A DNA stretch of 64,000 nt from Methanobacteriota archaeon (GTDB lineage: Archaea; Thermoplasmatota; Poseidoniia; Poseidoniales; Thalassarchaeaceae): assembly GCA_002718995.2 (NCBI GenBank), contig PBGL02000009.1, forward strand, positions 460 through 64,459. Reading direction: 5' to 3'. A program made the translations under genes and the position numbers. Below, piece after piece: positions 5,131 through 35,900 of this stretch; position 1 is the first letter of the stretch, and each line of letters begins with the position of its first letter. The notes under the pieces are model-generated. The model was not told where the DNA came from. It was given only the letters and a program-made list of their open reading frames with translations, and ran no database searches.

Positions 5131-5131
5131 A

Positions 5132-5207: not shown

Positions 5208-5304
5208 CGGGTCCATGCGGGCTGAGCCCTCACGATAAGCATGATGACGCGACTGGGGCGCCATCTCCCGCCGGAATCAAAAGTCCGGCCCGATTCGGAC
5301 AAAC

Positions 5305-6753: not shown

Positions 6754-6761
6754 GTGCGAGA

Positions 6762-13094: not shown

Positions 13095-13213
13095 TTCTCT
13101 CCCTCCGCTGGTATTACCCAGATCAGGTCAAGGGGTCGTCGCCTCGCGGCGACCTCTCAGCACTAAGCTCCCCCGTTTCCCCCATGGGAAACAGGATATT
13201 CAATGTTGGGACC

Positions 13214-14854: not shown

Positions 14855-14884
14855 CCATCTAACATTGTTACGATTGGGGATTTT

Positions 14885-15172: not shown

Positions 15173-15195
15173 GAGGTTCCGCCGGAGTCGGCCGA

Positions 15196-16611: not shown

Positions 16612-16654
16612 ACCTCACGAAGCGGTTATGAAGGGCATGCAGGTCGGCGGTCTG

Positions 16655-16819
16655 ATGGCTCAGAGGCACCCTGTCGCAGAAGCTCGACTTCTGAAGAAGT
16701 GGATATGCATGAAGTGCTCTGCCACCCACAGGGGCACCAAGAAGCCTAGGGCATGCCGAAAGTGCGGCTACAAGAACTTCAGGCCCAAGTCAGCAGAGAG
16801 GCGCCAAGGCGGCGCGTGA
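16655..16819 (+). CDS. rpl40e: 50S ribosomal protein L40e
   Basis: Motif [36 protein letters not shown] (C-x2-C...C-x2-C). I set the start at the third ATG of ORF 16628..16819. Confidence 0.8.
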
Positions 16820-16894
16820 TCTCTGACTGGGCAATCTTATCGATTGACAGTACACTCTCCCGGCTAGTGTGCACCGGTAATGCATAAGCCTGTT

Positions 16895-17263
16895 CTATGA
16901 CCTTTTGACTTCCGACATCAGAGTCTCAAGGGCCGTCTGAATCTGCAGGCACAGGGGACCGTAGTGGATAGGGAGGTTCGTGTCATTGAATATCTCGTCT
17001 AGCTTGGAGGCGGTCATCCCCAGCCTTACGTCCATATCCTTGTCCGTATTGAGTAGCCACTGATCGACAGACTCCTTGGCGGAAGCCCTGATGTTGCGAG
17101 GGACCTGGCTGTCGTCCAACTGGGCGAGGACCTGGGCTATCTGCTGGATTCTAGCTTCAATGTCAGTCAATTCAATCCCTCCATTCGCGGCGACCGGTGA
17201 GTGCTCCTTAAGCACATCCCCCCGGCGAACCTCGTCAGCACTCAGCCATGCCACTCTGCCCAT
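16895..17263 (-). CDS. UPF0147 family protein (archaeal)
   Basis: Motifs QVPRNIRASAKES and DTNLPIHYGPLCLQIQTALETL match the UPF0147 pattern. Start 17263 overlaps the upstream gene by 22 nt. GTG 17215 is an alternative start. Confidence 0.55.
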   Translation of the reverse strand: MGRVAWLSADEVRRGDVLKEHSPVAANGGIELTDIEARIQQIAQVLAQLDDSQVPRNIRASAKESVDQWLLNTDKDMDVRLGMTASKLDEIFNDTNLPIHYGPLCLQIQTALETLMSEVKRS

Positions 17264-18036
17264 GGCATATCCGTGTTTGAAAATCCCGACCCAGGGCCAT
17301 CCCTGCCTAGTGCAATAAGGCCCACTGAGACTCCGTCGTCAATGAGTTCCGAAATGCCCCAAGACATTGCATCTTGGATTGAGGCGTTATCGCGTAATGC
17401 CCTCTCTCCGACCCTGTAGCTTAGGAGCGCGGTGGTTATCGCCTCGCCCTCGCCCGTAGCTGCTACTGAGAGGTCTCTCGACGCCCAGAATCCACAACCG
17501 GGAAGTGGGACATCGCCAACCCTGCCAGGGGGCCTGTAACTGCACCCCCCTGTACTAGTTGCGCATGCCATTGCGCCAGTGGAATCCCTCGTAATGACTC
17601 CTACCGTATCACCGACCTCTTCCACAGGCTGCCTCCCCTCGACCGGGGCCCTTTTGTGGCCCTTCGAGTCGGCCCACGACCTTGCCCCCCCTCCCGTGAG
17701 TCCGTTGATTGGCTCATCCAAGAGATCGGCAGCAACTCGTATTGGGTTTGGAGTGTCTTCCATCGCGATCACGAAACCCATCCTGCCATCGCTTAGATGG
17801 AGGGATGCGTCCAGGAGCACTGAGCCATCGTTACGGAAAACCCCACCCGTTCCTGCGTTGAAGACCGGATCGTCCTCCAAGATGACGCATGCCTCTACGG
17901 CTGCTTCGAGTGCGGAGGCCCCAGATTGAAGGAGTTTCGACGCGACCTTGACCGCCTCTTCCACGTTCTTCTGCCTATCTGGCCCTGGCCCGGCACCCCC
18001 GTGTGCTACGACCGCTGGTATCGACTCCGACATCAC
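17242..18036 (-). CDS. Isoaspartyl peptidase / plant-type L-asparaginase (Ntn hydrolase)
   Basis: 264 aa. Motifs VVAHGGAG, DPVFNAGTGG and GDTVGVI (autoprocessing Thr), followed by ATSTGG. Confidence 0.8.
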   Translation of the reverse strand: MMSESIPAVVAHGGAGPGPDRQKNVEEAVKVASKLLQSGASALEAAVEACVILEDDPVFNAGTGGVFRNDGSVLLDASLHLSDGRMGFVIAMEDTPNPIRVAADLLDEPINGLTGGGARSWADSKGHKRAPVEGRQPVEEVGDTVGVITRDSTGAMACATSTGGCSYRPPGRVGDVPLPGCGFWASRDLSVAATGEGEAITTALLSYRVGERALRDNASIQDAMSWGISELIDDGVSVGLIALGRDGPGSGFSNTDMPWAEWHG

Positions 18037-18084
18037 ATCCCCCGCCCTAGGAATGGGAACAGGGACTTAGTTAGAACGGTCGGA

Positions 18085-23483: not shown

Positions 23484-24284
23484 GTGAGTGGCGAGTGGGT
23501 GGCCCTTAGGGAGGATGATGGGAGAGCGTATCTGCTGAGGCGCTCGCCCGGTGAGGTCAAGGTCAAGGGGCTTGGAAGATTTGACGCTGAGGAGCTACTG
23601 GATGGCTATTCTATTGGCGATAGGATAACTGTTGGGCAGAAGTCTCTAACCATTGTGGATCCATCACTACCCGAGGCTCGCAGAAACATGGCACGGAGAG
23701 CTCAGGTAATTGGTGCAAAGGACTCAGGTTTTCTAATTTCCTGGATGGGCATCGGAGTTGGTTCCAGAGTCCTGGAAGGAGGGCATGGATCTGCAGGGCT
23801 TGCAATGCACCTAGCTAATGTCATGGGCTCTTCCGGAACCCTGATTTCAGTTGAGTCTCGTCCGGAGCATGCGGAAGTCGGAAGGGCGAATATGGAAAGG
23901 CTATCCGAGATACTCCCCGAATTCCCAGAATGGCATTTGATAGACGGTGATTTGGTAGAAGTGGGTACGAGTGTTTCGGAAATCTGCGGAGAGTTGGATG
24001 CATCGATCATAGATGTCGCAGAGCCATGGCTGGTCATACCAATTATGGAACCCATATTGAGGATAGGGGGAAGGATAGCATGCTATTGCCCGACTACATC
24101 TCAGTTGGAGAAATCATGGGAAGTTGCCCAGGAAAATGGACTAATCATCGAATGGGCCGGAGAGATGATTGAGAGGAGGTGGGTCAAGGCCAGCAAGGGA
24201 GGAGTCAGGCCCGGGAACACACCCATTGGCCATACAGCACTATTACTGATAGCGGCTAAGGTCGCCACTTCTGAGGAAGAATGA
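23484..24284 (+). CDS. trmI: tRNA (adenine-N1)-methyltransferase TrmI (Gcd14 family)
   Basis: 266 aa with a GTG start. It has the SAM motif VLEGGHGSAGLAMHLA, plus DASIIDVAEPW and GGRIACYCPTTSQ. Confidence 0.7.
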   Translation: MSGEWVALREDDGRAYLLRRSPGEVKVKGLGRFDAEELLDGYSIGDRITVGQKSLTIVDPSLPEARRNMARRAQVIGAKDSGFLISWMGIGVGSRVLEGGHGSAGLAMHLANVMGSSGTLISVESRPEHAEVGRANMERLSEILPEFPEWHLIDGDLVEVGTSVSEICGELDASIIDVAEPWLVIPIMEPILRIGGRIACYCPTTSQLEKSWEVAQENGLIIEWAGEMIERRWVKASKGGVRPGNTPIGHTALLLIAAKVATSEEE

Positions 24285-24318: not shown

Positions 24319-25728
24319 ATGCGAGACAGCGCGTCATGGGAGCCGACATCCTACAGGACCCATACGATTGGACAGGTTTCTGAGAACGGAGCATCGATGG
24401 CAGGGTCAGAGGTCACAATTGCGGGATATGCGGAAACCGTGAGAGGGCGCGGGGCGATTTGTTTCCTGATGCTTCGAGATGGCACAGGGCATATCCAGGC
24501 TTTCCTCAAGAGAGACAACATGGACGAGGGTTCATTCGAATCTATCCAGTCAGCATCACGCGAATCGACGATTCAGGTCACAGGGACAGTTGCCCAGAAA
24601 AGGCCGCCTAAGGTCGCTGAAGGAGAGCCTGTTCCTCCACCTGAATACGAAGTCAACGTTTCCTCTGGTACGATACTCGCAGAGGCTGCTGCTCCGCTCC
24701 CGGTCGGAGTTACCGACGATGTCCAAGTGGGACTGGATGTAAGGCTGGACAATAGGCACCTAGACCTTAGAAGGGCGCATGTGAACGCGATGTTCCAGCT
24801 CAGATCAAAGGTCCTGCAGTATGGCAGGGACCACCTAATCAAGGAGGGTTTCCAAGAGATCAACAGCCCGAAGATCATCGCTGCAGCTGCCGAAGGTGGA
24901 ACTAACTTGTTCCCGATGAAATACTTCGAGACAGAGGCATACCTTTCACAGAGTCCGCAGTTGTACAAACAACTGGCAGTCCTAGGAGGGTTAGAGAGGG
25001 TTTTCGAAATCGGCCCTGCATTCAGGGCGGAGAAGCACGACACGTACCGCCATCTGAATGAGTTCATTTCCTTTGACATCGAAGGGGCATGGATGGACGA
25101 TGAGGACGTGATGGGCGTTCAAGAGAGGATGATACATCATATCTGGACAGAGGTTTCGAATAACGATCAGGACCTCATGGACGTCATTAATGAATACAGA
25201 GCCACTCAGGGGCAGGATGCAGTTACCGTGGATGTTCCAAGTCTCCCATTCCCAAGGATCCCCTACTGTGACGCGATAGAGATCGTCAAAGACGGAGGGG
25301 GCGAGATAGAGTGGGGCGATGACATTGAGAGTCACCACTGTGACCTAATTGCGGCAAAATACCCAGGATTCCACTTTCTCCCCAGATGGCCCATGGCGAT
25401 GAAGCCATTCTACATCCACCACAAGGAGGAAGAGAAGGGTACCACTGGAGGTCAGCTAAGCAGGGGTTTCGACCTCAATTATGGCCGGGATGAGATGACC
25501 AGCGGCGGTGCGAGAGAGCATCGGGTGGATGTCCTAGAACAGAACCTTAGGAACATGGGTCTCGAACCGGAAGACTTCGCATTCTACACTGATGGATTCC
25601 GATATGGGGCCCCCCCGCATGCGGGCTGGGGTCTCGGAGTAGCCAGATTGCTGATGGTCTTGACAGGGGCCGGTAATGTCCGAGAAGTGGTCCTATTCCC
25701 TCGAGACAGAAGTCGTGTTACCCCATAA
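24319..25728 (+). CDS. aspS: Aspartyl-tRNA synthetase, archaeal/eukaryotic type
   Basis: 469 aa. An OB anticodon-binding domain (ICFLMLRDGTGHIQ) is followed by class II motifs FRAEKHDTYRHLNEF and GAPPHAGWGLGVARL. Confidence 0.9.
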   Translation: MRDSASWEPTSYRTHTIGQVSENGASMAGSEVTIAGYAETVRGRGAICFLMLRDGTGHIQAFLKRDNMDEGSFESIQSASRESTIQVTGTVAQKRPPKVAEGEPVPPPEYEVNVSSGTILAEAAAPLPVGVTDDVQVGLDVRLDNRHLDLRRAHVNAMFQLRSKVLQYGRDHLIKEGFQEINSPKIIAAAAEGGTNLFPMKYFETEAYLSQSPQLYKQLAVLGGLERVFEIGPAFRAEKHDTYRHLNEFISFDIEGAWMDDEDVMGVQERMIHHIWTEVSNNDQDLMDVINEYRATQGQDAVTVDVPSLPFPRIPYCDAIEIVKDGGGEIEWGDDIESHHCDLIAAKYPGFHFLPRWPMAMKPFYIHHKEEEKGTTGGQLSRGFDLNYGRDEMTSGGAREHRVDVLEQNLRNMGLEPEDFAFYTDGFRYGAPPHAGWGLGVARLLMVLTGAGNVREVVLFPRDRSRVTP

Positions 25729-25740
25729 TTTGGTGATACA

Positions 25741-26403
25741 ATGGGCAGTGAGCTCCTGAAGTCCGAAGAACTGATGGAATGGGAAAGTAGGAAGAGGGCC
25801 AGATTCGTGAATAGCCTCAGTGGATTCAAGAGTGCGAATCTGGTAGGAACTCATCATCCCGAATTTGGGGACAACCTTTCCATAGTGTCCTCTGTCGTGC
25901 ACCTTGGGTCGACCCCTCCGATGATGGGATTCGTACTAAGACCGCCTGGCGAGGAGTCTCACACCTACAAGAATATCAAGTCTACAGGAGTATGCACCTT
26001 AAGTCATGTTAACGAGGACATAATCGAGGAGTCCCATCAGACCAGTGCTAGGTACTCCCGGGGGTGTAGCGAGTTTGACGAGGTTGGACTGACCCCCAGG
26101 ATGGTGAGCGGTTGGGTGGCCCCCTGCGTCGAAGAATCAAAGGTGAAAATGGGTTTGAGTCTGGTTGAAGATACTGAGTTAGCGAATGGTTGCCGATTCA
26201 TGACTTGTGCTGTGGAATGGTTCGAGGTAGAATCTGAAGGATTTTGTAGCGATGGTTACGTCGATCTACACGGCCTCGGGGGCGTCTCTATTTCTGGCTT
26301 GGACGGATACCACAGGACTCCTGGGATTTCCAGATTGTCATATGCCAAGATCGACCGGGAAATAGAAAAAAGGGAAGATTTTCGTGAAGGATGGGCTGAA
26401 TAG
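25741..26403 (+). CDS. Flavin reductase-like (split-barrel FMN-binding) protein
   Basis: 220 aa. Motifs SLSGFKSANLVGT, NLSIVSSVVHLGSTPPMMGFVLRP, HTYKNIKSTG and SHQTSARY match a COG1853-type flavin reductase subfamily pattern. Confidence 0.55.
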   Translation: MGSELLKSEELMEWESRKRARFVNSLSGFKSANLVGTHHPEFGDNLSIVSSVVHLGSTPPMMGFVLRPPGEESHTYKNIKSTGVCTLSHVNEDIIEESHQTSARYSRGCSEFDEVGLTPRMVSGWVAPCVEESKVKMGLSLVEDTELANGCRFMTCAVEWFEVESEGFCSDGYVDLHGLGGVSISGLDGYHRTPGISRLSYAKIDREIEKREDFREGWAE

Positions 26404-26474
26404 GTGTTAAATTCTCCAAATTTAGGCCTGCGCGAAGGACCGAAAATAACGGGTATCTATAACCCCTGCGTGGA

Positions 26475-27206
26475 ATGATAGATATGGCCAAGCCGAGGTT
26501 CGCATTTCTACTTCTGAAGGAGCACCCGTACGGCAGGGAAATGCTTCAGCAGATTCTTTCTGAGGGTTTCGTACCCGAGATAATTATCGAGGAGGACTCT
26601 CCGATCGGGGACGAGGAGCGGGAGAAATTTCTGAAGAGGATTGAGGGGAACCCGGTGGCTCCGACCGTAGAAGAACAGGCGAAGGAGAATGGGATTCTGG
26701 TAGAGACCGTCGAAATTCACAAGTCTCCCCAGGTGATGCCTCTCCTGGAAGGTTTGGATCTCGATTTGATAGTATTCGGAGGAACTAGAATAATCAGAGG
26801 TGAGATTCTGGAATTTCCACGCCATGGAGTTGTGAATTCCCACCCTGGAATTCTGCCGGACTGTAGGGGCTCAGCATCTCCGGCATGGTCTGTTTTCCAC
26901 GATATAAAAGTCGGATCGACGTGCCATTTCTGCGATAATGGAATAGATACGGGGGAGATACTCCTCAAGCGTGAAGTACCCGTCAAAAGAGGCATGAATT
27001 ATGAGGATCTCTGCTATGAAACGCTGGTTCTTTCGGGAATTCTGATGAAGGAAGCACTGATGGCCTATGATGAGGGACGGTGGTCTGACATGCGGCAACC
27101 CCAGGGGGAGAGTGAGTATCCGACATTCAGAAATGCTCCCGAAGATATCCTAGAGGCCGTCAGGGAGAAGCTGGAAAAGCAGACGTACGCACATTACGTG
27201 AATTAG
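26475..27206 (+). CDS. Formyltransferase-family protein (Formyl_trans_N catalytic core only)
   Basis: 243 aa. Motifs VNSHPGILPDCRG (N-x-H...LP-x-x-RG) and DNGIDTGEIL (catalytic Asp region). It has no tRNA-binding C-terminal domain. Confidence 0.7.
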   Translation: MIDMAKPRFAFLLLKEHPYGREMLQQILSEGFVPEIIIEEDSPIGDEEREKFLKRIEGNPVAPTVEEQAKENGILVETVEIHKSPQVMPLLEGLDLDLIVFGGTRIIRGEILEFPRHGVVNSHPGILPDCRGSASPAWSVFHDIKVGSTCHFCDNGIDTGEILLKREVPVKRGMNYEDLCYETLVLSGILMKEALMAYDEGRWSDMRQPQGESEYPTFRNAPEDILEAVREKLEKQTYAHYVN

Positions 27207-27214
27207 GTGAAAAA

Positions 27215-28018
27215 ATGAGTGAAGATTTACTGAGAGACGGGTTTCCATTTGCAGAAGACGTACTGAGAGGGCAGACCGCCCTAGTTTGCGGCGCCTCAAA
27301 GGGAATAGGGCGCTCTTGTGCCCTTATGCTCGCTCGAGCGGGGGCTCGGGTGATCGCCTGCGCTCGCTCCCAGAGCGACCTTGATTCATTGATTGCCGAC
27401 ATGCATGGGGATGGACACGAGGCTTTGGTAATCGATCTTGAAGATATTGGGGCCATCAGGGATGCATTCTCCCGCAGGACGGAAAGCATACAAATTCTGA
27501 TCAATAATTCCGGTGGCCCTCCTGGGGGGGCCCTGCTTGAGAATACACTGGAGGACTTTGAGGGGCCATTTAGTAGGCACCTCCACGCCGCTCACACGCT
27601 AGTGCAAATGCTGTCCCCCGGAATGAAAAATGCAGGTAATGGCAGGATTGTGAACATCATCTCAACGTCTGTGCGCGAGCCGATTGACAACATCGGACTG
27701 TCAAATACGCTCAGAGGGGCCATGGCATCGTGGTCGAAATCACTGTCTCGCGAACTGGACCCGTGCATTACCATAAACAATATCATGCCCGGATTCACCA
27801 ATACCGACAGGCTTGGATCTCTTGCTGGTTCAATCTCCGAAAACACTGGCAAGTCGGTGCAGGATGTCCGCGAGAATTGGATGAGTTCGGTTCCTATTCA
27901 GCGGCTTATCGAACCACTTGAGACGGCGACTGCTGTAACGTTCCTTTGTTTGCCGAGCAGCGGGGGAATTCGGGGAGTTTCTTTGGCGGTTGATGGCGGA
28001 AGAATGCGATCCATCTAA
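27215..28018 (+). CDS. Short-chain dehydrogenase/reductase (FabG-like)
   Basis: 267 aa. Motifs GASKGIGRS (TGxxxGxG-type) and NNSG, with the length and layout of a classical SDR. Confidence 0.8.
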   Translation: MSEDLLRDGFPFAEDVLRGQTALVCGASKGIGRSCALMLARAGARVIACARSQSDLDSLIADMHGDGHEALVIDLEDIGAIRDAFSRRTESIQILINNSGGPPGGALLENTLEDFEGPFSRHLHAAHTLVQMLSPGMKNAGNGRIVNIISTSVREPIDNIGLSNTLRGAMASWSKSLSRELDPCITINNIMPGFTNTDRLGSLAGSISENTGKSVQDVRENWMSSVPIQRLIEPLETATAVTFLCLPSSGGIRGVSLAVDGGRMRSI

Positions 28019-28030
28019 GGATTGATTTGA

Positions 28031-29275
28031 ATGAAGTTCGATATCTTCTTCTCTATTTCTCAGACACCAGATACCTCGGGCCATACCCCGACTGAGCGGG
28101 AGATGTTTTCCAACTTCCTAGATCAGGTGGAGAAGGCCGACGAGCTGGGGTTCGGAGTCGGTTGGGTTGCTCAGGCCCACCTCTCCACGGAAGTCCAGAA
28201 GTCAAATTCCCAGCCAGTTGTCCCTCACTATCCGGGAGAGGTTGGGCTCTGCACAGATTTTTTCCAAGTTGCGACGGCTATGTTCGCACGTACCAAGAGT
28301 ATGGAGGTTGGGAGTGCTGTAATGTCGATACTTGCCAGTGGCGGACCAATTCCGCAGGCCGAGCGAGTGGGCTCATTTCTTGCCTTGCATGGAATGAATC
28401 CCGAAGAAGGGAGGAAGTTACACATTGGTTTCTCCGCCGGACGCTTTGAATTCATGGCCCGGCCATATGGGATCGTTCCACGTGACCCCTTGGAGGAGGC
28501 GGCCTGGCCAGCCCTCAGAGGACAGGTTTTCGCTGAGGCATCAGAAATTTTCCTTCGGCTCTTGAACGGAGAAGTCATATCGAGCAAGATGATTAGAAAA
28601 ACTATCCTAACTCGAGAGAATTTCCGTTCAGACGAGGATTGGGGTAGAGTTCAGAGGGCCGCAGTCGAGCTTCATGGGCTCGGCGAGTTGCCGGAATCAA
28701 TTGCCATCCCGTCCCGATACAACTTCGAGGAGATAATGACGATTCCACAAGAGTGGCGTCGAGAGCTGCTAAATCTAGTTCTTGGAAGTCACGATGCAGC
28801 ATTGCAAGTCGAAGTCAACAGATGGGCACCTGTTCAGGTGTTTAACCTCTCAATTACTCCCCCTCATATTATCGAACAGACACACGAACGCATGACTGAA
28901 CACTATCATCCTTCAGGAGGGAAGTGGGGGCGTGACATGATGCCTCGTACAATTATGGTATTCGTCAATGATGAACCCGGACTGACTGATGAGGAGAGAA
29001 GTGCTGCTGCGAGCGAGGAAGCCAGAGCTGCGCTGACCACCTATTGGCATGCTCTCGAGGGTACGATCGACCCATCTAAGGTCGAGCGGGCCACGGATAA
29101 TGCAGTGATTGGCAATGTTAGCGAGGTGGCCGCACAAATAAGGGAGAGGTTCGATCATGAGGATCGGTTGATGTGCTGGTTCGACTTCTTCAATCACGAC
29201 TCTGAAAGAGTTCAGCGCAACATGGAGGCATTCATGACCAAGGTCGCACCGGCGGTTAACGGAGGGAGTGAATGA
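28031..29275 (+). CDS. Luciferase-like (LLM class) flavin-dependent monooxygenase
   Basis: 414 aa. It has the MKFDIFFS N-terminus and ADELGFGVGWVAQAHL, on a TIM-barrel LLM pattern with a long insertion. Confidence 0.7.
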   Translation: MKFDIFFSISQTPDTSGHTPTEREMFSNFLDQVEKADELGFGVGWVAQAHLSTEVQKSNSQPVVPHYPGEVGLCTDFFQVATAMFARTKSMEVGSAVMSILASGGPIPQAERVGSFLALHGMNPEEGRKLHIGFSAGRFEFMARPYGIVPRDPLEEAAWPALRGQVFAEASEIFLRLLNGEVISSKMIRKTILTRENFRSDEDWGRVQRAAVELHGLGELPESIAIPSRYNFEEIMTIPQEWRRELLNLVLGSHDAALQVEVNRWAPVQVFNLSITPPHIIEQTHERMTEHYHPSGGKWGRDMMPRTIMVFVNDEPGLTDEERSAAASEEARAALTTYWHALEGTIDPSKVERATDNAVIGNVSEVAAQIRERFDHEDRLMCWFDFFNHDSERVQRNMEAFMTKVAPAVNGGSE

Positions 29276-30450
29276 GCGCGCATAAAACCGAGCAGCCATC
29301 CAGTGTTGCTCCAGGTCGACCAGGATCGGCTGTTTTTCCTACGAATCCACTTGGTGAGAAGCATGACGGGATAGCCACGGGCCGTGATGTTGAGTGGGAG
29401 CCACTAGTTGATTTCAGGAGGATGGATGTTTCAGAAAATACAATCCATGGGGCAATCGCTTGGGCACATGGTAGTGAGATAATCCATTCATTCGGTGGAA
29501 ACGTTTTGGTTTACGGAAGATCCATGATGAAACCTCTGATGATGAAGCCATTCGTAGACGTCTTGGATGACCTCGATTGGGAGCAAAAGGCGATTGCCTG
29601 CTCCTCCCACAATGGCGATACTGAGCATGTTTCAGCTGCTCAATCCCTTCTTTCTGAATCCGAATGGGGGCTTATGCAATGCCCATTAGATGTCCCACTG
29701 ATTCAATTCGGACGTCAGGTCAGAAGACCCCGGAGGTGGTTTCACACCTGCTCGGGAGAGCATGCGGCAATCCTGAAAGCAATGCGTAAAATGGGGATGA
29801 ACAGAGCTGGATACACGCTCCCTAGCTCTCCATGGTTCCCATTGTACCTCGATGTTTTACGGGACTACATGAATAATCCAGATTGGGAGCCACTGAGAGT
29901 AGCAAAGGATGGATGTGGCTTCCCAACGGTTTCGAACACTGTGGACGAGCTCGCTGTAATGTTCGCTGGAATAGCTACGAATCGAGATAAGGATTGGATT
30001 TGGGAAGCAATGAATAGGCATCCAGATCTAATTGGCGGATTCAATAGGCTTGATTCCACATGCCTAAAGGCGGGAGAGGGGAAAATAATCGCCAAAGAAG
30101 GCGCGGATGGGCTAATGGGGTTAGCGATAGATCATCCCGATTGGCCAAATGGACTTGGTATCGTAATAAAAATCGCCCATGGTTGGAATAGCCAAGCCAC
30201 TTGGTATGTAGCAAGAGCTGTCCTTGGGGTCCTCGGAATATCTCTGAGGAATCCATACCCTCTGCACCGTCAGAAGGCATTCATCGTTCCGGGAATCGTA
30301 CCTGAAATGTACAGAGAGGCACTGGAAGAAGTAGTAACTTGGGATGAATGGGACCCTGACAGAGACCGATTCACCCTGGATTGGAAGGAGTATGCATCTG
30401 CCATGACAAGGTCGGATCCCTTTTCCAACGAGGGAGTCGGTGATTCCTGA
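29272..30450 (+). CDS. Asparaginase II family (PF06089-like) protein
   Basis: 392 aa. Motifs SSHNGDTEHV, CSGEHAAILK, DGCGFPT and AKEGADGL. Its ATG overlaps the upstream stop (ATGA). Confidence 0.65.
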   Translation: MSAHKTEQPSSVAPGRPGSAVFPTNPLGEKHDGIATGRDVEWEPLVDFRRMDVSENTIHGAIAWAHGSEIIHSFGGNVLVYGRSMMKPLMMKPFVDVLDDLDWEQKAIACSSHNGDTEHVSAAQSLLSESEWGLMQCPLDVPLIQFGRQVRRPRRWFHTCSGEHAAILKAMRKMGMNRAGYTLPSSPWFPLYLDVLRDYMNNPDWEPLRVAKDGCGFPTVSNTVDELAVMFAGIATNRDKDWIWEAMNRHPDLIGGFNRLDSTCLKAGEGKIIAKEGADGLMGLAIDHPDWPNGLGIVIKIAHGWNSQATWYVARAVLGVLGISLRNPYPLHRQKAFIVPGIVPEMYREALEEVVTWDEWDPDRDRFTLDWKEYASAMTRSDPFSNEGVGDS

Positions 30451-31886
30451 TGGATCTGATGAACTATATCGGGGGAAAATTCGAGAGGCATTCCGGAGAA
30501 AAATGGCTTGATGTCGAAGAGCCATCCACGGGGAATGTGTTTGCCAGAGCCCCACTATCAACTCCAGCAGATGTTGACTCGGCAATTCTTGCAGCTAGGA
30601 AAGCCCAGCCCAAGTGGGGCGGCATGGACGGTGAAGAAAGGGCGCGGTGGCTGGACAGGATTGCAGATGGATTAGAATCTAGATATGAAGAAATTGCATC
30701 TCTGGAGAGCAAGGATACTGGAAAACCAATTTCACTGGCCAGAACAGTTGACGCGCATAGATCGGTGGTAAATTTCAGATTCTTCGCAGATGAAATCAGG
30801 AGACACGAGGGGGAGATCTTTGAGATGGCCGACTCTACTAATTTCGTCTCATACAGGCCGGTCGGTGTTGGAGCACTAATCACTCCTTGGAATCTTCCAC
30901 TGTACCTGCTATCATGGAAGGTTGCACCTGCCATTGGAATGGGCAACACCGTGGTATGTAAACCGAGTGAGTTGACGCCGATGACAGCAAATCTACTCAT
31001 GGAAGTAATACACGAAGTAGGACTTCCTGAAGGGGTCGTCAATTTGGTTCACGGGGATGGCCTGGGGGCCGGTAGCAGCCTTGTCTCTCATGATGATGTG
31101 GACCTAGTATCATTCACAGGGGGGACGTCGACGGGATCTAAAGTCGCAGAAGCCGCAGCGCCACAATTCAAGAAGCTCAGCTTGGAGCTTGGAGGGAAGA
31201 ACTCTAGCATAGTCCTGGAGGACTGCGACATTGAGTCTACAATCAAGGGCGTGGTTAGATCCGGTTTCATGAATCAGGGTCAAGTCTGTCTTTGTGGAAG
31301 TAGAATTCTAGTCCAAGACGGAATTTATGACGAATTCATGGAGCGATTCATTGAGGAAGTCGAGTCGATGACTGTAGGGGACCCCTCTGATGAGGGGACT
31401 GACCTAGGGGCGTTGATTTCAGCGGAACACCTTAGGAAGGTGGAAGGCTACATCGAGTTAGCGAAGGAGGAAGGTGGAACAATAGTAACTGGCGGATATC
31501 CATGCCTCCCAGAACGATTGTCGAATGGAAACTGGATTGCGCCTACCGTGATTACTGGACTAAGTGTCGACTCTAGGTGCTCGACTGAGGAGATATTCGG
31601 GCCGGTCGTCTCTGTACACCGCTTCTCCAAGGATAGTGAGGCTATTGGAATAGCCAATAACACCCGATACGGGCTTGCAGGTAGCGTCTGGACTGGCGAT
31701 CTAGAAAGGGGCAGGAGGATTGCCGATTCAATACACACCGGAATGGTTTGGGTGAACACTTGGCTTCATCGTGATCTCAGAGCGCCCTTTGGAGGGGTGA
31801 AAGATAGCGGAGTTGGAAGGGAAGGCGGGAAGTGGAGTCTGGGATTCTTCTCAGAGGCCACTAACGTGTGTGTCAAGCACGATTGA
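30450..31886 (+). CDS. NAD(P)-dependent aldehyde dehydrogenase (hydroxymuconic-semialdehyde-dehydrogenase-like)
   Basis: 478 aa. Motifs VNFRFFAD, ITPWNLPL, FTGGTSTG, LELGGKN and the catalytic GQVCLCGSR. Its start overlaps the upstream stop (TGATG). Confidence 0.8.
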   Translation: MDLMNYIGGKFERHSGEKWLDVEEPSTGNVFARAPLSTPADVDSAILAARKAQPKWGGMDGEERARWLDRIADGLESRYEEIASLESKDTGKPISLARTVDAHRSVVNFRFFADEIRRHEGEIFEMADSTNFVSYRPVGVGALITPWNLPLYLLSWKVAPAIGMGNTVVCKPSELTPMTANLLMEVIHEVGLPEGVVNLVHGDGLGAGSSLVSHDDVDLVSFTGGTSTGSKVAEAAAPQFKKLSLELGGKNSSIVLEDCDIESTIKGVVRSGFMNQGQVCLCGSRILVQDGIYDEFMERFIEEVESMTVGDPSDEGTDLGALISAEHLRKVEGYIELAKEEGGTIVTGGYPCLPERLSNGNWIAPTVITGLSVDSRCSTEEIFGPVVSVHRFSKDSEAIGIANNTRYGLAGSVWTGDLERGRRIADSIHTGMVWVNTWLHRDLRAPFGGVKDSGVGREGGKWSLGFFSEATNVCVKHD

Positions 31887-31910
31887 CTCAGCAACAGTGA
31901 AAGTCCACTC

Positions 31911-32909
31911 TTGTTCGAAAGCAGCACTGTGGCGCCAGTTGGAATAGTAGGTATCGGTTCCTACGTACCCCCTAATGAGATGACCAATGAGGACTGGGCC
32001 GAGATAGTGGAGACCAGTGACGAATGGATAACAACAAAGACTGGGATGAAGAAGAGGCGAATAGCCGAACCAGGAGTTTCCACATCGGATTTGGCGGTGG
32101 AGGCTTGCAAGATTGCAATGGATGATGCTGGCCTAGAAGCTTCTGATATTGACATGATCATCCTAGCAACTTCATCCCCAGACGTTCCACTTTCCTCGAC
32201 GGCCGGGATCGTCCAGGAAAAATTGGGATGTACGGATTGCGCTGCATTCGACATCAATGCAGTCTGTGCAGGGTGGGTGCATGCCCTAGACGTCGGCTCG
32301 AGGTATGTAGGGACCCCTGGATACGACAATGTCTTGGTGGTTGGTTCGGAGATTTACTCCAGGATACTGAACTGGGAGGATAGGTCTACTTGCGTACTAT
32401 TTGGGGACGGTGCGGGTGCAGCAGTTATTTCCAAGGTGGAAAGTGGGCGCGGAATTCTAGGTTCTTGGCTATTATCGGATGGTTCTGGCTCATCGGTGAT
32501 AGAGATCCCAGCAGGAGGCGTCAGGACGCCGATTCCTTCAGAGGGTTTCGTGGAAGGGATGCAGTATTTCCACATGGATGGTAGAGCAGTGTGGAACTTT
32601 GCTATTGAGGCGTTTCCGCAGGCGGTCCGAGAGGTGCTAGAAAGAGTTGGCAAGACCCTGGATGAAGTGGACCTGATCATACCACATCAGGCAAACATCA
32701 ACATTATCGAGGCCGGGATGAAGAACCTAGGGCTGCCTATGTCCAAGACATTCACAAATCTGCACAAGTATGGGAATACTGCTGGAGCTAGTGTCCCCAT
32801 TGCCCTGAAGGAGGCTATCGAAGAAGGATTGGTTGGCCCGGGTTCACTGATTGTTACAGCTGCTTTCGGTGGCGGCCTAGCATGGGGCGCAAATGCGATA
32901 GTCCTCTGA
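31911..32909 (+). CDS. fabH: 3-oxoacyl-ACP synthase III (KAS III / FabH-like)
   Basis: 332 aa with a TTG or GTG start. It has the active-site Cys context DINAVCAGWVHAL, plus HQANINII and GNTAGASVP. Confidence 0.75.
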   Translation: MFESSTVAPVGIVGIGSYVPPNEMTNEDWAEIVETSDEWITTKTGMKKRRIAEPGVSTSDLAVEACKIAMDDAGLEASDIDMIILATSSPDVPLSSTAGIVQEKLGCTDCAAFDINAVCAGWVHALDVGSRYVGTPGYDNVLVVGSEIYSRILNWEDRSTCVLFGDGAGAAVISKVESGRGILGSWLLSDGSGSSVIEIPAGGVRTPIPSEGFVEGMQYFHMDGRAVWNFAIEAFPQAVREVLERVGKTLDEVDLIIPHQANINIIEAGMKNLGLPMSKTFTNLHKYGNTAGASVPIALKEAIEEGLVGPGSLIVTAAFGGGLAWGANAIVL

Positions 32910-35900
32910 CTACTGATCTACGCCCTTCCAGGTTCCGGACATGGGATCGAATACCATGATGCTGCCATCTGGATTCTGGCAATAGACTGATCCGGATAGT
33001 TCTGTCCAGACCAGTTGCCCGTGCTCATTCATCCTTGCATCATCAGGAGCAGCAATTTTCGAGGCCTCAGGCTCGATTTTTGATTCTTCGAATGTCGGCA
33101 CTCGTTCATCCTCAACACTCTCATCGATGACTTCAGGTAGACTGGTTTCAATGGCCTCAGACTCATTCGCGTCAGATGAGGATTCGAGCTGCATTGGCTC
33201 CTCGATTACGGTTTGTCGAATATCGACAAGTGAAGCCTCCTCGGTTTGGATTGACTCCTTCACCGGCTCACTTACTGATCTTCTGCGCATCACCATCCAG
33301 CCACCGAGCCCTATTAGTGAGATTATGACCAAAGCCGCGCCCAAGAATGCGTACTTTGCCATGCTGTCTGGCTCCAAGTGCCTGTCTGGGTCCTCGGGGA
33401 ATGCATCGCCGTTATCCCCGTATCCGTCCCCGTCAGTGTCTGACCACTCAGTGGGATCAACAGGGAAGGCATCGACGCCGTCTTCGAAGTTGTCGTCGTC
33501 TGTGTCGGTATCGAGTCGATTGGATCCAGCAGCCTCCTCGTCAACATCAGATAGCCCGTCATTGTCGTCATCAGTATCGGAGTTGTCGCCAATCCCATCC
33601 ATGTCGCTATCTACCCACTCGCCGAAGTCTAGAGGGAGTGCGTCTTCGGAATCGGGGAATCCATCATTGTCGTCATCCTCGTCCTCTTCTGAGTCATTGC
33701 ACCCATCCACGTCATAGTCATTCTCCGAGGTGCTAGTCCAACCCAGCAAACCCTGCGGGCAATGGTCATAGGCATCATCGATACCGTCTCCGTCGTCATC
33801 TTCATCTATGTCATCATGGACTCTGTCACCATCCAAATCAGAATAGCATTCATCCGCCGATTCTGCTCCTTCCTGGAGGGTTATGTGCGATTCAGGGCAC
33901 TGTTCCAAAGTTGTGCTTGATGCCTCTGAAACATAGAAGTCAAGAGGTGCTGGTGTCTGCTGATCTTGGCCTTCGCTTGGTGCGTAGAATCCTGGTTGAG
34001 ATGGGTTACAGGACGTCTGCCCTGGGTCGGGCTGGAAGCTTCCTGGGCTGCACTTCTCTTGGCCCGAACTAGCCGGCGACTGAACGTAACTTCCGGGATC
34101 GGCATCCAGGCAGTCATAGGGGGATGTAGAGCCAGTCTGGGGATTGTAGGTTCCAGCAGGGCACTGAGACTGGTCACTCGAACCATCGGTACTAACGAAG
34201 TGGCCGGGGTCTGCATCCACACACGATGATCTTCCCGAATTGGGCTGGTATGTCCCTTCTGAGCAGGGGGTCTGCGAATCAGAGCCGGGGTTGGCAACAT
34301 AGTGGCCAGGATCGGCGGCGCTGCACTCCGCGGAGGAGTTGGCCCCTGTAGATGGGTTATAGGTGCCCTCTGGACAAGGGGTCTGGGATGACTGCCCAAG
34401 GCCATCGACGTAGTGACCGGCCTCTGCCTCGAAACAAGTTGCAGAACCAGTGGATGGTTGGTATGACCCAGTGTCGCACTCATACTGGGCTATTGACCCC
34501 TCTGAGCCGACGTAGTTCCCTGGGTCGGCTTCCAGGCAGGAGGCCTGGCCCGAGAGGGGCTGATAGGTTCCCTCCGAGCATGGTTCCTGATTGGCTTGGC
34601 CATCAGAAGAGGAATAGTTCCCCGGGTCTGCGCCTAGACATTCGGAAGAATCGCTGGAGCCCTCGGATGGGTTGTATGTTCCTGCGGGGCATGGTGTCGG
34701 AGAGGTGGCGGCGCTGTAGTCCACGTAGTGGCCGGCGGGAGAGTCCAGACAGGTGGTCTGACTCCCGTATGGCTGGTATGTGCCGGGAGAGCATGGTGTT
34801 TGAGAAGAAGAGCCCTCGGAGTCCACATAGTACCCAGGAGATGCCCCATCGCACTTGTCCTGGCCCGGTAGCGGCTGATACGTTCCTGCCGAACAGGGAG
34901 TCTGGGTGGTCGATGCGTTGGAGGGTACGTAGTTCCCTGGAGACGCATTCAGGCATGTTGACTGGCCGGTGCTTGGCTGGTAGGTGCCAGGGGCGCATGG
35001 AGTCTGGCTGGTAGAGTTGTAGTAGTAAACGAAGTATCCGGCATCGGCATCGATGCAGGAGGTTGAGCCAGAGGATGGCTGGTAGGTGCCAGGGGCGCAT
35101 GGAGTCTGGGAGTTGGAGGCGTTGGAAGGGACGTAGTACCCTGCGTCGGCGTTGATGCATGACGCCTGACCCGTCGAGTTCTGATACGTGCCTGCTGGAC
35201 ATGCCGTCTGACTGCTTGAGCCGTTGGATGGCACGTAGTATCCCATGGAGGCGGGAGTCTGCGTCGATGCGCCGCTGGATGGCACGTAGTTACCTAGAGA
35301 CGCCTGTACGCATGAGGTCTGGCCATACATTGGTTGGTAAGTGCCTGGCTCACACTGTGTCTGGGAAGAGGCGCCACTGGATGGCACATAGTTTCCAGGT
35401 GAGGCCCCCAGACAACTCGATTGCCTAGTCCCGGGCTGGTAAGTCCCCGGATAGCATTCGTACTGACGGACACCAATTTCGACTGCAATCTGGAATGTTG
35501 AGTTTCCGACTAAGCTTCCATCATCAGTCGAGAAGAGCCATAGGGACATCGAGTATGATCCGTTTCCCCAAGTCCTATTCACGTGGATGAAGGCTATCGA
35601 GTCGCCGGAGAATCCGGTGCCGTTTGTGGAAAACGTGTCTAGACCTGCGGAGGTGTTGCTTGTACTGGAGCCCAGTAGGGATATCGTAGAGTTGTAGACG
35701 GAGAGGTCGAAGTTGGCCCCACCAGGGCTGGTCAAGCTCAAAGAAAAGCCACTGTCTCGCGGGACATCGATAGCGAATAAGTCCCCATGATCCGCGGGGT
35801 TTTGACCTGCATTAAGTTCGCCGATGTATGTGGCGCTCCTGTCCGATAGATTCACTCTTGGATAGGAGTTACCCGAGAAGTCCGGAGCATCTCCGTATAG

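Follow-up and report, generated by a model that had tools for sequence, protein, structure and literature searches.

A predicted tryptophan catabolic gene set

Five genes at the centre of a seven-gene array in a Marine Group IIb (Thalassarchaeaceae-like) archaeon most likely belong, together with genes for tryptophan 2,3-dioxygenase (TDO), an AmnB/AmnA-type 2-aminophenol 1,6-dioxygenase and a RidA-type deaminase, to a conserved catabolic gene set. We propose, with a probability of roughly 0.6, that these five genes (genes 2–6 of the array; Table 1) encode the middle part of a route that degrades tryptophan by way of 2-aminophenol and dispenses with kynureninase, with a chemistry predicted from sequence comparisons. 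The literature searched gave no description of this route, in line with a first-pass annotation of the same DNA that could not map the whole set onto a described pathway, and tryptophan breakdown of this kind is most likely undescribed.

Table 1. Features of the locus, in positions of the window (the whole 64,000-nt stretch of contig PBGL02000009.1 that was analysed).
Feature	Position	Strand	Match or basis
GCD14-like methyltransferase (tRNA-methyltransferase-like), first gene of the same-strand run	23484-24284	+	
Non-discriminating AspRS, second gene of the same-strand run	24319-25728	+	
Flavin reductase (split-barrel, PF01613)	25741-26403	+	Pfam 53.9 bits
Conserved promoter/operator-like element	26439-26470	+	Conservation across genera
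Stand-alone formyltransferase-core protein, 243 aa	26475-27206	+	PF00551 50.7 bits
Classical SDR oxidoreductase	27215-28018	+	adh_short_C2 109.3 bits, adh_short 105.8 bits
Divergent luciferase-like (LLM) TIM-barrel protein, 414 aa	28031-29275	+	Bac_luciferase 34.8 bits
Class-3 (Rhizobium etli-type) asparaginase-family Ser-Lys hydrolase (AsnII)	29272-30450	+	PF06089 153.5 bits
2-Aminomuconate-6-semialdehyde dehydrogenase-like ALDH (AmnC-like)	30450-31886	+	Aldedh 562.3 bits
Bacterial-type FabH (KAS III)	31911-32909	+	PRK09352 381.8 bits (cut-off 249), TIGR00747 345.2 bits (cut-off 292.1)

Gene organization and boundaries

The seven consecutive ORFs lie on the + strand (25741..32909), separated by 71, 8, 12, -4, -1 and 24 nt; coordinates and gap sizes agree exactly with the first-pass annotation, and all seven family identities given there are borne out by Pfam/NCBIfam profile matches. 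The annotation had described a tightly coupled operon, and the tight co-directional spacing is real, but such packing is the norm for this genome and no more than chance. A rough ORF model covering all 1.48 Mb of the genome puts the coding share at 91% and the median same-strand gap at 24 nt; 51% of same-strand gaps are 25 nt or less and 75% are 75 nt or less, and 24 of 421 runs have at least seven same-strand genes. The run itself is longer than seven genes, starting with two housekeeping genes (GCD14-like methyltransferase and AspRS), with just 12 nt between the second of these and the flavin reductase gene. Because of this earlier start, and because a conserved promoter/operator-like element lies within the 71-nt gap, the seven genes are unlikely to be one unit.

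The element, ACCGAAAAkAAyGGGTAT-N6/7-CCCCTsCG, stops 4 nt short of the start codon (ATG) of the formyltransferase-like gene, and it is conserved in front of this gene across genera irrespective of the gene upstream. Among 41 related genomes there are 59 matches in 31 (4 for a reversed control), and 24 of the 25 genomes with an orthologue of the formyltransferase-like gene have the element directly upstream of it. The same element also precedes formate-THF ligase in relatives, and a second copy in the host genome, with one mismatch, lies 19 nt before the ribB ATG of the riboflavin operon (contig C12); it matches no Rfam family. It is probably the 5′ boundary of the core unit, with a putative transcription start region before the formyltransferase-like gene. 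Near-identical RNA-library contigs span the junctions 2|3, 3|4, 4|5 and 5|6, from the formyltransferase-like gene to that for the ALDH, and are weak evidence of co-transcription because contigs cannot prove a single transcript.

The flavin reductase and FabH genes are later, lineage-specific additions at the two ends of this core; conserved synteny, unlike the spacing, goes beyond chance, and it holds for five genes and leaves these two outside. The flavin reductase (closest solved structure 3fge, a 'putative flavin reductase', E 1e-54) has orthologues in 15 of 22 genomes of its own genus, in each case immediately 5′ to the gene for the formyltransferase-like protein, and, one weak match aside, in none of 19 from other genera. 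Lying upstream of the promoter-like element, it is therefore probably outside the core unit, and it is probably a genus-specific accessory supplying reduced flavin to the LLM protein; a reductase partner, as had been anticipated, does adjoin the set in this genus. FabH is a lineage-specific neighbour unrelated to the conserved set. Its orthologues (E ≤ 1e-30) are found in 22 of 41 relatives, restricted to genera g1 and g4, and locus maps also place it after the ALDH gene in g12 and g13 (of the same family) but not in g10 and g16. No PP-binding/ACP protein and no KAS I/II was found in the host genome (85.7% complete), which, with the narrow distribution, argues against KAS III as the end of a pathway.

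The GC content of the seven-gene region (0.512) is indeed lower than that at 9–16 kb (0.592), as had been noted by eye, but the region is close to the genome mean of 0.517, and it is the 9–16 kb stretch that stands out, ranking in the top 6% of 2-kb windows. There is no compositional sign of the transfer from a donor lineage that had been suspected.

Conservation and partner genes in archaea

The LLM, AsnII and ALDH genes sit side by side in 17 of 18 archaeal loci from three families of the order, and all five core genes (Formyl-SDR-LLM-AsnII-ALDH) are contiguous in 8/8 further loci of family f1. A sister order (family f4) has the single co-directional string TDO-SDR-LLM-AsnII-ALDH-LigBa-LigBb-RidA-Formyl in all seven complete loci, an eighth, cut by a contig end, being left out. 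Genes for LigB and a LigB::RidA fusion lie directly 3′ of the ALDH gene in genome G022, so that there, as in the sister order, the ALDH gene sits between the asparaginase-like and AmnB/AmnA-like genes; in family f3 the LigB genes are ~2–3 kb downstream, behind panB. The host genome carries TDO at C15:63324-64289 (200.8 bits) and a LigB-LigB-RidA trio on another contig (C19). Of the solved 2-aminophenol 1,6-dioxygenase subunits, the beta subunit is matched by LigB_a (E 2.7e-106) and the alpha subunit by LigB_b (E 8e-43). TDO is found in 40 of 41 relatives, a Cyclase-type formamidase in none of the 41, and kynureninase above cut-off in none of five genomes. Most of the array is a conserved functional unit, as first supposed, but not a self-contained one, its partners lying on other contigs here and, in the sister order, in a single string with it.

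The ALDH is best matched among NCBIfam models by 2-hydroxymuconic semialdehyde dehydrogenase (555.7 bits, under the 693.25 cut-off); 2-aminomuconate 6-semialdehyde dehydrogenases take the first seven places among its PDB matches (E 7.7e-141 to 1.9e-133), with hydroxymuconic semialdehyde dehydrogenase ranking behind them. The formyltransferase-like protein consists of the Formyl_trans_N core only, retains the N-x-H-P...D-x-G motif, and falls under every NCBIfam equivalog cut-off (fmt 55.9/201.5, PurN 36.9/150.1); its best solved relatives are the hydrolase domain of 10-formyl-THF dehydrogenase and GART, and a separate PurN-like paralogue is present on host contig C2. It is a core member in families f1 and f2 and in the sister order, where it is last of the nine genes. 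The SDR reaches no NCBIfam equivalog threshold. Its gene is directly upstream of the LLM gene in 8/8 f1/f2 loci of a first survey and in 8/8 f1 and 8/8 f4 loci of later maps (one of the f4 loci is cut just after the LLM gene), and beside it in none of 12 annotated bacterial loci. The SDR belongs to the gene set, yet has no role in the scheme proposed below.

The LLM–AsnII pair

The LLM protein, product of the signature gene of the set, is highly divergent: Pfam Bac_luciferase covers only residues 1–111, neither NCBIfam nor, at E ≤ 1, the PDB sequences give a match, and the family is small, at 321 representatives (E ≤ 0.001) among 1.84 billion. An AF2 model (pLDDT 88.3) has the LLM fold by Foldseek, with a best match of 2.7e-14 and 13–18% identity among the matches listed. 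The gene occurs in 39 of the 41 relatives and, class-wide, in 110 of 121 genomes.

AsnII is an obligate partner of the LLM protein, its gene following the LLM gene in all but one of 18 archaeal loci. It matches ReAIV/ReAV at E 5e-15, and ReAV residues R47, S48, K51, S80 and K263 (residue roles as given in PMC12292245) correspond to R83, S84, K87, S112 and K275; unlike in ReAV, the zinc-site Lys is replaced by Glu163. The Ser-Lys tandem residues are conserved in 11 of 11 aligned sequences.

The pair recurs in bacteria, where 48 loci were examined, as labelled mostly from Bdellovibrionota/Oligoflexales and Myxococcota-type MAGs, 12 of them annotated by Pfam. AsnII directly follows the LLM gene in 40 of the 44 loci with room, carries a fused Cyclase domain (kynurenine-formamidase family) in 17/48, and has TDO within the locus in 14/48. 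Locus L077 reads LigB-LigB-RidA-ALDH-FAA_hydrolase x2-LLM and then, after other genes, AsnII::Cyclase and TDO; L059 reads RidA-ALDH-FAA_hydrolase x2-LLM-AsnII::Cyclase, with the LigB pair found by tblastn. Five bacterial genomes with a pair unlinked to TDO all carry TDO and LigB elsewhere (controls 2/14 and 4/14).

Proposed route and alternatives

In the route that we favour, TDO would open tryptophan to N-formylkynurenine, the formyl group of which would be removed in bacteria by the Cyclase-type formamidase fused to the asparaginase-like protein, and probably in these archaea by the formyltransferase-like protein, which may remove or transfer it. The LLM protein, as a flavin-dependent oxygenase of kynurenine or N-formylkynurenine, would use reduced flavin to insert oxygen beside kynurenine's aryl ketone by Baeyer-Villiger-type chemistry, giving a beta-aspartyl 2-aminophenyl ester or, after an acyl shift, N4-(2-hydroxyphenyl)asparagine. 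Hydrolysis of this beta-aspartyl aryl ester or amide by AsnII would yield aspartate and 2-aminophenol, whose ring would be opened by AmnBA; the ALDH would then oxidise 2-aminomuconate semialdehyde and RidA deaminate the product. Substrates and products of the LLM protein, AsnII, the formyltransferase-like protein and the SDR are predictions only.

Several observations count against the tryptophan route. The LLM model is no nearer to type II Baeyer-Villiger enzymes than to luciferase, RutA or sulfonate monooxygenases; the ALDH and RidA fall under NCBIfam equivalog or subfamily cut-offs; and most lineages have no dedicated flavin reductase. Family f3 has the formyltransferase-like orthologue in 0/14 genomes and lacks the Cyclase too, which leaves the scheme with no enzyme for deformylation in that family. 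Of 22 own-genus genomes, 9 (completeness 69–92%) retain LLM, AsnII and ALDH but gave no LigB pair. Within the class, where TDO and LLM are both near-universal, their co-occurrence is little informative.

A competing, though unlikely, possibility is that the LLM–AsnII pair frees 2-aminophenol or a related aminoaromatic from another amide or anilide, for instance an N-aryl or N-acyl compound from the environment, with only a secondary link to TDO. Nothing in the sequence or fold comparisons fixes the LLM substrate, 24 of 36 bacterial loci with at least 3.5 kb downstream have no TDO or Cyclase within the locus, and genome G023 (96% complete) has TDO plus the LigB pair but yielded no LLM, AsnII or formyltransferase-like gene, so TDO and AmnBA can exist without the LLM module; the last two points also weigh against the tryptophan route. 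Set against a different substrate are the fusion of AsnII to a kynurenine-formamidase-family domain and the proximity of TDO in bacteria, the position of TDO at the head of the sister-order string, and its retention in all five unlinked bacterial genomes tested. A classical-type route with substituted enzymes, in which the LLM protein stands in for kynurenine 3-monooxygenase as the C3 hydroxylase of kynurenine and the LigB pair acts as the ring-cleaving enzyme for 3-hydroxyanthranilate, seems improbable. LLM enzymes are capable of hydroxylation, and the 2-amino-3-carboxymuconate branch of the kynurenine pathway shares the ALDH and RidA steps, but no kynureninase above cut-off was found in five genomes, a Ser-Lys amidohydrolase is implausible as a C-C hydrolase, the LigB pair matches 2-aminophenol 1,6-dioxygenases, and the mapped strings contain no ACMS decarboxylase-type gene (among the 12 Pfam-annotated bacterial loci; the archaeal maps cover the query genes).

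Least probable of all is the self-contained seven-gene biosynthetic or tailoring pathway of the first-pass annotation, whose product, a small molecule or lipid head group with acyl or amine parts, would be primed by KAS III and N-formylated as the last step. The seven genes are co-directional and close, FabH passes the NCBIfam cut-offs for a genuine KAS III, and the formyltransferase core retains its catalytic motif. This reading is disfavoured by gene spacing that is normal for the genome, by the restriction of FabH and the flavin reductase to few genera where the other five genes are class-wide (the formyltransferase-like gene excepted in f3), by the failure to find ACP or KAS I/II, and by a catabolic context in which the conserved partners are ring-cleavage enzymes and TDO and the seven best solved relatives of the ALDH act on 2-aminomuconate 6-semialdehyde. 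That the genes are unrelated neighbours, held together by genome compactness and inheritance within one archaeal class, is very doubtful: AspRS and the tRNA-methyltransferase-like gene are equally packed and equally conserved neighbours in f1, and related genomes are non-independent samples, but LLM–AsnII adjacency recurs in bacteria labelled as other phyla, the AsnII::Cyclase fusion is independent of gene order, and the set keeps its membership while its order varies between f1, f3, f4 and bacteria.

Organization of the gene run

The seven forward-strand open reading frames are separated by 71, 8, 12, -4, -1 and 24 nt, exactly as the first-pass annotation had it, and Pfam and NCBIfam searches agree with the family named there for each product: a flavin reductase, a formyltransferase-like protein, an SDR, an LLM flavin monooxygenase, an asparaginase-II-like protein (AsnII), an ALDH and FabH. 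The reading of these genes as a tightly coupled seven-gene operon holds for the frames and their spacing but not for a single unit, as five genes are conserved and the two end genes appear to be lineage-specific. Synteny in relatives, which that annotation had suggested checking, extends over the five core genes (formyltransferase-like, SDR, LLM, AsnII and ALDH) and not over the flavin reductase and FabH.

The packing of the seven genes is nothing special for this genome. By a crude longest-ORF model of the 1.48-Mb genome (85.7% complete), 91% is coding, the median same-strand gap is 24 nt, gaps of 75 nt or less make up 75% of same-strand gaps, and 24 of 421 runs comprise at least seven genes. 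The run itself is opened by genes for a GCD14-like methyltransferase and a non-discriminating AspRS, the latter ending 12 nt before the flavin reductase. Close spacing in such compact genomes does not define operons; AspRS, the genus-specific flavin reductase and the lineage-specific FabH are packed as closely as true members. The cluster had also been judged by eye to be less GC-rich than 9–16 kb, which is correct as numbers (0.512 versus 0.592), but against a genome value of 0.517 it is the 9–16 kb stretch that is unusual and not the cluster, and we reject horizontal transfer on compositional grounds. Transfer is also unsupported by per-gene GC3 values of 0.47–0.57, which lie inside the 5–95% range of the genome (0.45–0.76).

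Coordinates of the features described, in the window unless a contig (C) or fetched locus (L) is given
Feature	Position	Strand	Position in fetched locus
Seven-gene run	25741–32909	+	
Upstream element	26439–26470		
Second copy of the element 18-mer, own genome	C12:77476–77493		L106 5477–5494
CTP-dependent riboflavin kinase	C12:31200–31610		L107 1483–1926
Formate-THF ligase, own genome	C25:45832–47544		
TDO ORF with overlapping thiolase gene, own genome	C15	-	L033 8040–10365
TPR protein, family f3			L017 8484–9332
TPR protein, family f3			L020 10682–11512
High-GC stretch	3001–19000		
Sodium:solute symporter	11631–13094	-	
TPP riboswitch	13083–13184	-	
Asparaginase_2 protein	17242–18036	-	
RCC1-repeat protein	32910–37970	-	

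Gene neighborhoods in archaeal relatives

Nine window proteins were mapped on 18 LLM loci of relatives in the same order, and 20 further loci were then compared; the archaeal relatives compared are not independent of one another, which limits the synteny counts as support. LLM, AsnII and ALDH genes are contiguous in 17 of the 18, and the exception, in family f2 of this order, has the formyltransferase-like, SDR and LLM genes in one place and AsnII in another, near a LigB pair (AmnB/AmnA-type 2-aminophenol dioxygenase genes). The formyltransferase-like and SDR genes lie directly 5′ of LLM in all eight loci of f2 and the window's own family (f1). In the third family, f3, the formyltransferase-like gene is absent from all ten of the loci mapped, and the SDR is found 0.9–2 kb from LLM on the same strand in seven of them. 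Two f3 loci have a 276–282-aa TPR protein directly 5′ of LLM, in the slot held by the SDR in f1, f2 and f4.

The fullest arrangement is seen in f4, a family of another order within the same class, where all seven complete loci carry one co-directional string of TDO (tryptophan 2,3-dioxygenase), SDR, LLM, AsnII, ALDH, LigB, LigB, RidA and the formyltransferase-like gene; an eighth locus ends after LLM and was left out of this count. The five-gene block is intact in all eight further f1 loci, with FabH behind it in genera g12 and g13 (five loci) and with LigB-LigB(-RidA) 3–5 kb downstream instead of FabH in g10 and g16 (three loci). Four further f3 loci have panB between ALDH and LigB-LigB-RidA, and one of the four (genus g19) retains the formyltransferase-like gene. 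In another relative, G022, LigB and LigB::RidA genes lie directly 3′ of ALDH.

Occurrence of the cluster genes among 41 genomes
Gene	Genomes	Distribution or basis
LLM	39/41	genome-wide search
Asparaginase_II	40/41	genome-wide search
Formyltransferase-like orthologue	25/41	f1 23/25 (including the window's own genome), f2 2/2, f3 0/14
Flavin reductase orthologue	15/22 of own genus	beside the cluster only in these; other genera none except one weak match
FabH orthologue	22/41	genera g1 and g4 only

At the level of the class, LLM is found in 110 of 121 genomes, and TDO in 40 of 41 relatives. Gene order thus compared, the five genes are most likely the middle of a conserved catabolic set leading from tryptophan/kynurenine to 2-aminophenol, and the flavin reductase and FabH are, to judge from their distribution, lineage-specific additions. 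Against the pathway reading, no LigB pair was found in 9 of the 22 own-genus genomes, and G023, the genome of another relative, has TDO and LigB but LLM, AsnII and the formyltransferase-like gene were not found in it.

In the window's own genome the remaining members of the set lie on other contigs. TDO (200.8 bits) is on C15, and its frame shares 26 nt with the beginning of a thiolase (Thiolase_N/C) gene, an overlap that may hint at a lower route down to acetyl-CoA. A tightly spaced LigB-LigB-RidA trio (320, 308 and 141 aa, separated by 8 and -4 nt) is on C19; the first LigB matches the beta subunit of a solved 2-aminophenol 1,6-dioxygenase (E 2.7e-106) and the second the alpha subunit (8e-43), so that the dioxygenase pair and a RidA-type deaminase are both present in the genome. 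The sole FAA_hydrolase, on C13, is unlinked, and no linked decarboxylase, hydratase, aldolase or acetaldehyde-DH gene was found in the archaeal strings with the queries used. What the window adds to the set is a split three-locus layout, an accessory flavin reductase and FabH, and a shared upstream element.

Related loci in bacteria

The LLM family is small, with 321 representatives at E≤0.001 among 1.84 billion, bacterial members included. An alignment of 15 sequences is without any conserved stretch, and bacterial loci were sought with a sub-alignment of four bacterial LLM sequences; because this served as query, the 48 loci obtained represent only that bacterial branch. By their record titles they are mostly Bdellovibrionota, Oligoflexales, Polyangiaceae, Myxococcales-type, and unclassified Pseudomonadota or 'Deltaproteobacteria' MAGs. 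AsnII is directly 3′ of LLM in 40 of the 44 loci with room for it and elsewhere in the locus in three more; it bears a C-terminal Cyclase domain in 17/48, and TDO is within the locus in 14/48. Pfam annotation of 12 loci gave an AsnII::Cyclase fusion in eight and an adjacent TDO in six, and in none of the 12 is a formyltransferase-like gene or SDR next to LLM. The bacterial locus L077 reads LigB-LigB-RidA-ALDH-FAA_hydrolase (two copies)-LLM, with AsnII::Cyclase and TDO a few kb further, and a second, L059, reads RidA-ALDH-FAA_hydrolase (two copies)-LLM-AsnII::Cyclase, its LigB pair being seen by tblastn only. A bare LLM-AsnII pair is present in 24 of 36 loci with room, and most loci are not TDO-linked, which counts against the reading; TDO and LigB are found elsewhere in all five such genomes tested, compared with 2/14 and 4/14 controls.

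The encoded proteins

The 414-aa LLM matches Bac_luciferase (PF00296) over residues 1–111 only (34.8 bits, cut-off 27.9), a match that spans more of the length of its bacterial homologues. It has no single-sequence PDB match at E≤1 and no NCBIfam model, and the best solved match of its profile is LuxA (E 1.5e-5); relatives 80–87% identical are recorded as Candidatus Thalassarchaeaceae, Thalassarchaeum or Poseidoniales, which assigns the window to an archaeon of Marine Group IIb type. According to its AF2 model (pLDDT 88.3, pTM 0.88) the protein is a (beta/alpha)8 TIM barrel of the LLM superfamily. The best Foldseek matches are all LLM enzymes (probability 1.00, target-normalised TM 0.6–0.78, top E 2.7e-14) and include an Agrobacterium monooxygenase, RslO1, luciferases, RutA, 3,6-diketocamphane monooxygenase and sulfonate monooxygenases; the matches listed extend to about 1e-9 at 13–18% identity. 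The type II Baeyer-Villiger diketocamphane monooxygenases 5aec and 4uwm rank 23 and 28 (14% identity), with luciferase, RutA and MsuD at least as close, and from the model no LLM subfamily can be named. The protein thus shares the TIM-barrel fold of the two-component oxygenases LuxA, RutA and 3,6-diketocamphane monooxygenase, from a superfamily that uses reduced FMN (or F420) delivered by a separate reductase, and in its own genus an adjoining flavin reductase (Flavin_Reduct by Pfam), but is only 13–18% identical to the solved LLMs listed.

AsnII matches PF06089 with 153.5 bits (cut-off 25) and is 26–32% identical to its bacterial homologues. In the Rhizobium etli enzyme ReAV, Arg47, Ser48, Lys51, Ser80 and Lys263 are essential by mutagenesis (PMC12292245), and R83, S84, K87, S112 and K275 of AsnII align to these, such that Arg47 and both Ser-Lys tandems described there are kept. 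The class-3 zinc site, made up of two Cys and a Lys, is altered: AsnII has C160-S-G-E163-H with C215, so that in Marine Group II a Glu takes the place of the Lys, and the Cys residues are both replaced in the f4 orthologue and one is Ser in two unfused bacterial homologues. ReAIV and ReAV share the PF06089 domain but are distant matches (E about 5e-15), and unlike them the AsnII type of the window is paired with LLM (adjacent in 17/18 archaeal and 40/44 bacterial loci). The window also encodes a plant-type asparaginase/isoaspartyl peptidase (Asparaginase_2), so that the class-3-like protein is not required for ordinary hydrolysis of asparagine. The context of AsnII argues for a beta-aspartyl substrate other than free L-asparagine.

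The seven best PDB matches of the ALDH are all 2-aminomuconate-6-semialdehyde dehydrogenases (best E 7.7e-141); its best NCBIfam model, TIGR03216 for 2-hydroxymuconic semialdehyde DH, scores 555.7 bits, below the cut-off of 693.25. The SDR is of the classical type by its Pfam match, and for its step we can only guess at enoyl/keto reduction after deamination or at flavin reduction. FabH exceeds the cut-offs of PRK09352 (381.8 versus 249) and TIGR00747 (345.2 versus 292.1). The 85.7%-complete genome yielded no PP-binding protein as a type II FAS context for FabH, and its sole ketoacyl-synt match, in a search for KAS I/II, is a weak one to a thiolase.

The formyltransferase-like protein is a 243-aa Formyl_trans_N core without a C-terminal domain. 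It scores below the NCBIfam equivalog cut-offs for fmt (55.9 versus 201.5), PurN (36.9 versus 150.1), ArnA (33.8 versus 777) and dTDP-sugar formyltransferase (33.1 versus 238). It has the common fold of PurN (GART), Fmt and the hydrolase domain of 10-formyl-THF dehydrogenase and keeps Asn-x-His and Asp-x-Gly, its motifs N-S-H-P-G-I-L-P and I-D-T-G-E-I-L aligning to GART and 10-formyl-THF dehydrogenase; the catalytic roles of the Asn/His/Asp motif we take to be those in E. coli PurN. That the gene is simply purN is rejected, since a separate PurN-like paralogue is present on contig C2 and in relatives, and unlike PurN and Fmt it sits in a TDO operon in the sister order and has an upstream element in common with ribB in the own genome and, among relatives, with formate-THF ligase. 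In part of the group the protein is a candidate substitute for kynurenine formamidase: no Cyclase-type kynurenine formamidase was found in 41 archaeal genomes, and in f1, f2 and f4 gene content offers no other candidate for deformylation. As a universal substitute it is weakened by f3, which has neither an orthologue (0/14) nor the Cyclase type and shows no deformylation candidate.

A putative kynureninase-free route

Of the canonical kynurenine route (TDO, Cyclase formamidase and kynureninase) only TDO was found in the archaeal genomes, and none of the five genomes searched has a kynureninase above cut-off. Kynurenine is an aryl ketone, and the LLM could act on it by a Baeyer-Villiger insertion through a flavin peroxide, with aryl migration yielding the 2-aminophenyl ester of the aspartate side-chain carboxyl, which could shift to N4-(2-hydroxyphenyl)asparagine. 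Either product would be a natural substrate for a Ser-Lys hydrolase of asparaginase fold, giving aspartate and 2-aminophenol, and the latter would be the substrate for the AmnBA-type dioxygenase of the set. Formyl transfer from a formanilide to THF would be near-isoenergetic, because the accepting N10 of THF is an aryl amine too. The Rut pathway, in which LLM oxygenation is followed by an amidohydrolase and a RidA-type deaminase, with a flavin reductase, serves as a working analogy, although the partner hydrolase in the window has another fold than RutB.

In its lower part the set resembles amn-type clusters, which we take to consist of the AmnB/AmnA dioxygenase, AmnC dehydrogenase and AmnD deaminase. 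The likeness lies in the ALDH of the window, in the LigB pair of the genome and the RidA-family protein after it, and, in the bacterial L077 and L059, in two FAA_hydrolase genes (decarboxylase/hydratase type). The set differs in being headed by TDO, LLM and AsnII rather than by genes supplying the aminophenol or acting on nitroarenes, and in being split over three contigs in the window's own genome. With the canonical kynurenine pathway it has TDO in common, and in bacteria the set includes a Cyclase-type formamidase domain, but LLM and a Ser-Lys amidohydrolase would stand in place of kynureninase. Neither an LLM or asparaginase-like step in the breakdown of kynurenine nor this cluster in Marine Group II was found described in full-text literature that excludes most subscription journals, in keeping with the first-pass view that the genes cannot be mapped to a described pathway, and the set leading from tryptophan/kynurenine to 2-aminophenol is apparently undescribed.

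In its most complete form the proposal combines three new activities: an LLM 'kynurenine oxygenase' of the Baeyer-Villiger type, an AsnII releasing aspartate and 2-aminophenol, and an archaeal formyl transfer from N-formylkynurenine to THF that would give 10-formyl-THF, not formate. These would occur in Marine Group II, in archaea of the sister order and in several predatory or gliding bacteria, and one shared operator would connect the archaeal unit with riboflavin synthesis, as the supply of flavin to the LLM, and with formate-THF ligase, as a supply of one-carbon units. That all of this holds together we consider unlikely, at roughly one chance in five. The uncultured Marine Group II archaea rank with the most abundant heterotrophs in surface ocean waters, and what is said of their diet comes from genomes. 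If the catabolic reading holds, it would provide them and Bdellovibrionota/Myxococcota-type bacteria with a kynureninase-free use of tryptophan yielding aspartate and central metabolites, a new use of the formyltransferase fold, and first functions for a tiny divergent LLM family and a non-asparaginase branch of the class-3 asparaginases.

A conserved upstream element and expression

The 71-nt gap before the formyltransferase-like gene contains an element of ~32 nt, ACCGAAAAkAAyGGGTAT-N6/7-CCCCTsCG, that ends 4 nt before the ATG and is conserved across genera whatever the upstream gene. Its 18-mer recurs once in the own genome with one mismatch, where about 0.002 such genome-wide matches are estimated to be expected by chance. 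This second copy is 19 nt 5′ of the ATG of ribB, which opens an operon with a RibL-like gene, riboflavin synthase and lumazine synthase. In 41 relatives there are 59 matches to the element in 31 genomes compared with four for a reversed control, and of the 25 genomes with the formyltransferase-like gene, 24 have a copy directly 5′ of it. Eight other copies examined precede ribB (three), formate-THF ligase (four) and an EamA transporter gene (one); the own formate-THF ligase gene has no copy, and none was found near the cluster in the sister order and most of f3. In three f4 loci of genus g20 (L088, L089 and L090) there is another conserved stretch about 30–60 nt 5′ of TDO, whose sequence bears no relation to the window's element.

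Because of its constant distance of 18–21 nt to the ATG and its A/T-rich core, the element is consistent with a promoter that an operator overlaps and that is followed by a very short leader. No Rfam family matches it at the gathering score, and 26380–26520 gives no match below E 3.5; an RNA hairpin formed by GGG...CCC is not favoured, as by eye G-T-G-G and C-G-C-G variants alter the 5′ arm and no change compensates for it. Nor is a known riboflavin operator supported, the RbkR operator described for Thermoplasmata being a TTAC-N10-GTAA palindrome (PMC5397151) and the element here having an ACC-N10-GGT layout with other letters. The CTP-dependent riboflavin kinase of the own genome is a stand-alone protein of 147 aa with the kinase domain only; it is without the wHTH domain of RbkR, and the riboflavin operon is therefore under some other control. 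On the promoter-operator reading the core unit appears to start downstream of the flavin reductase and to be linked to flavin and one-carbon genes, in what looks like a small regulon of flavin, one-carbon and catabolic units. We know of no regulators in Marine Group II, and the element is a candidate operator in this group.

Co-expression in metatranscriptomes, another check proposed earlier, was addressed with four RNA runs from three studies that contain only 10–18% of sampled words. RNA-library contigs at least 95%, mostly at least 99%, identical cover parts of AspRS, SDR, LLM, AsnII, ALDH and FabH and span all four junctions between genes 2 and 6, with DNA carry-over possible; such bridging is compatible with co-transcription of genes 2–6 but is no proof of single transcripts. 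Among the regions without contig cover are 25585–26852 (flavin reductase and 5′ formyltransferase-like gene) and 30974–31290, from which no conclusion is drawn.

Other features of the window

The high-GC stretch to the left of the cluster (0.58–0.60 versus a genome mean of 0.517, in the top 6% of 2-kb windows) contains genes for a PHO4-PhoU_div phosphate transporter, PAP2, a symporter, another ALDH and adenylosuccinate synthetase. A TPP riboswitch (55.2 bits, Rfam gathering score 54.3) lies directly 5′ of the sodium:solute symporter gene, which is a candidate for a thiamine-related transporter. To the right, a gene whose end abuts the FabH stop base-to-base encodes a protein of 1686 aa that combines RCC1 repeats with Ephrin_rec_like modules, and this protein is far more variable among relatives (46–85% identity) than its neighbors.
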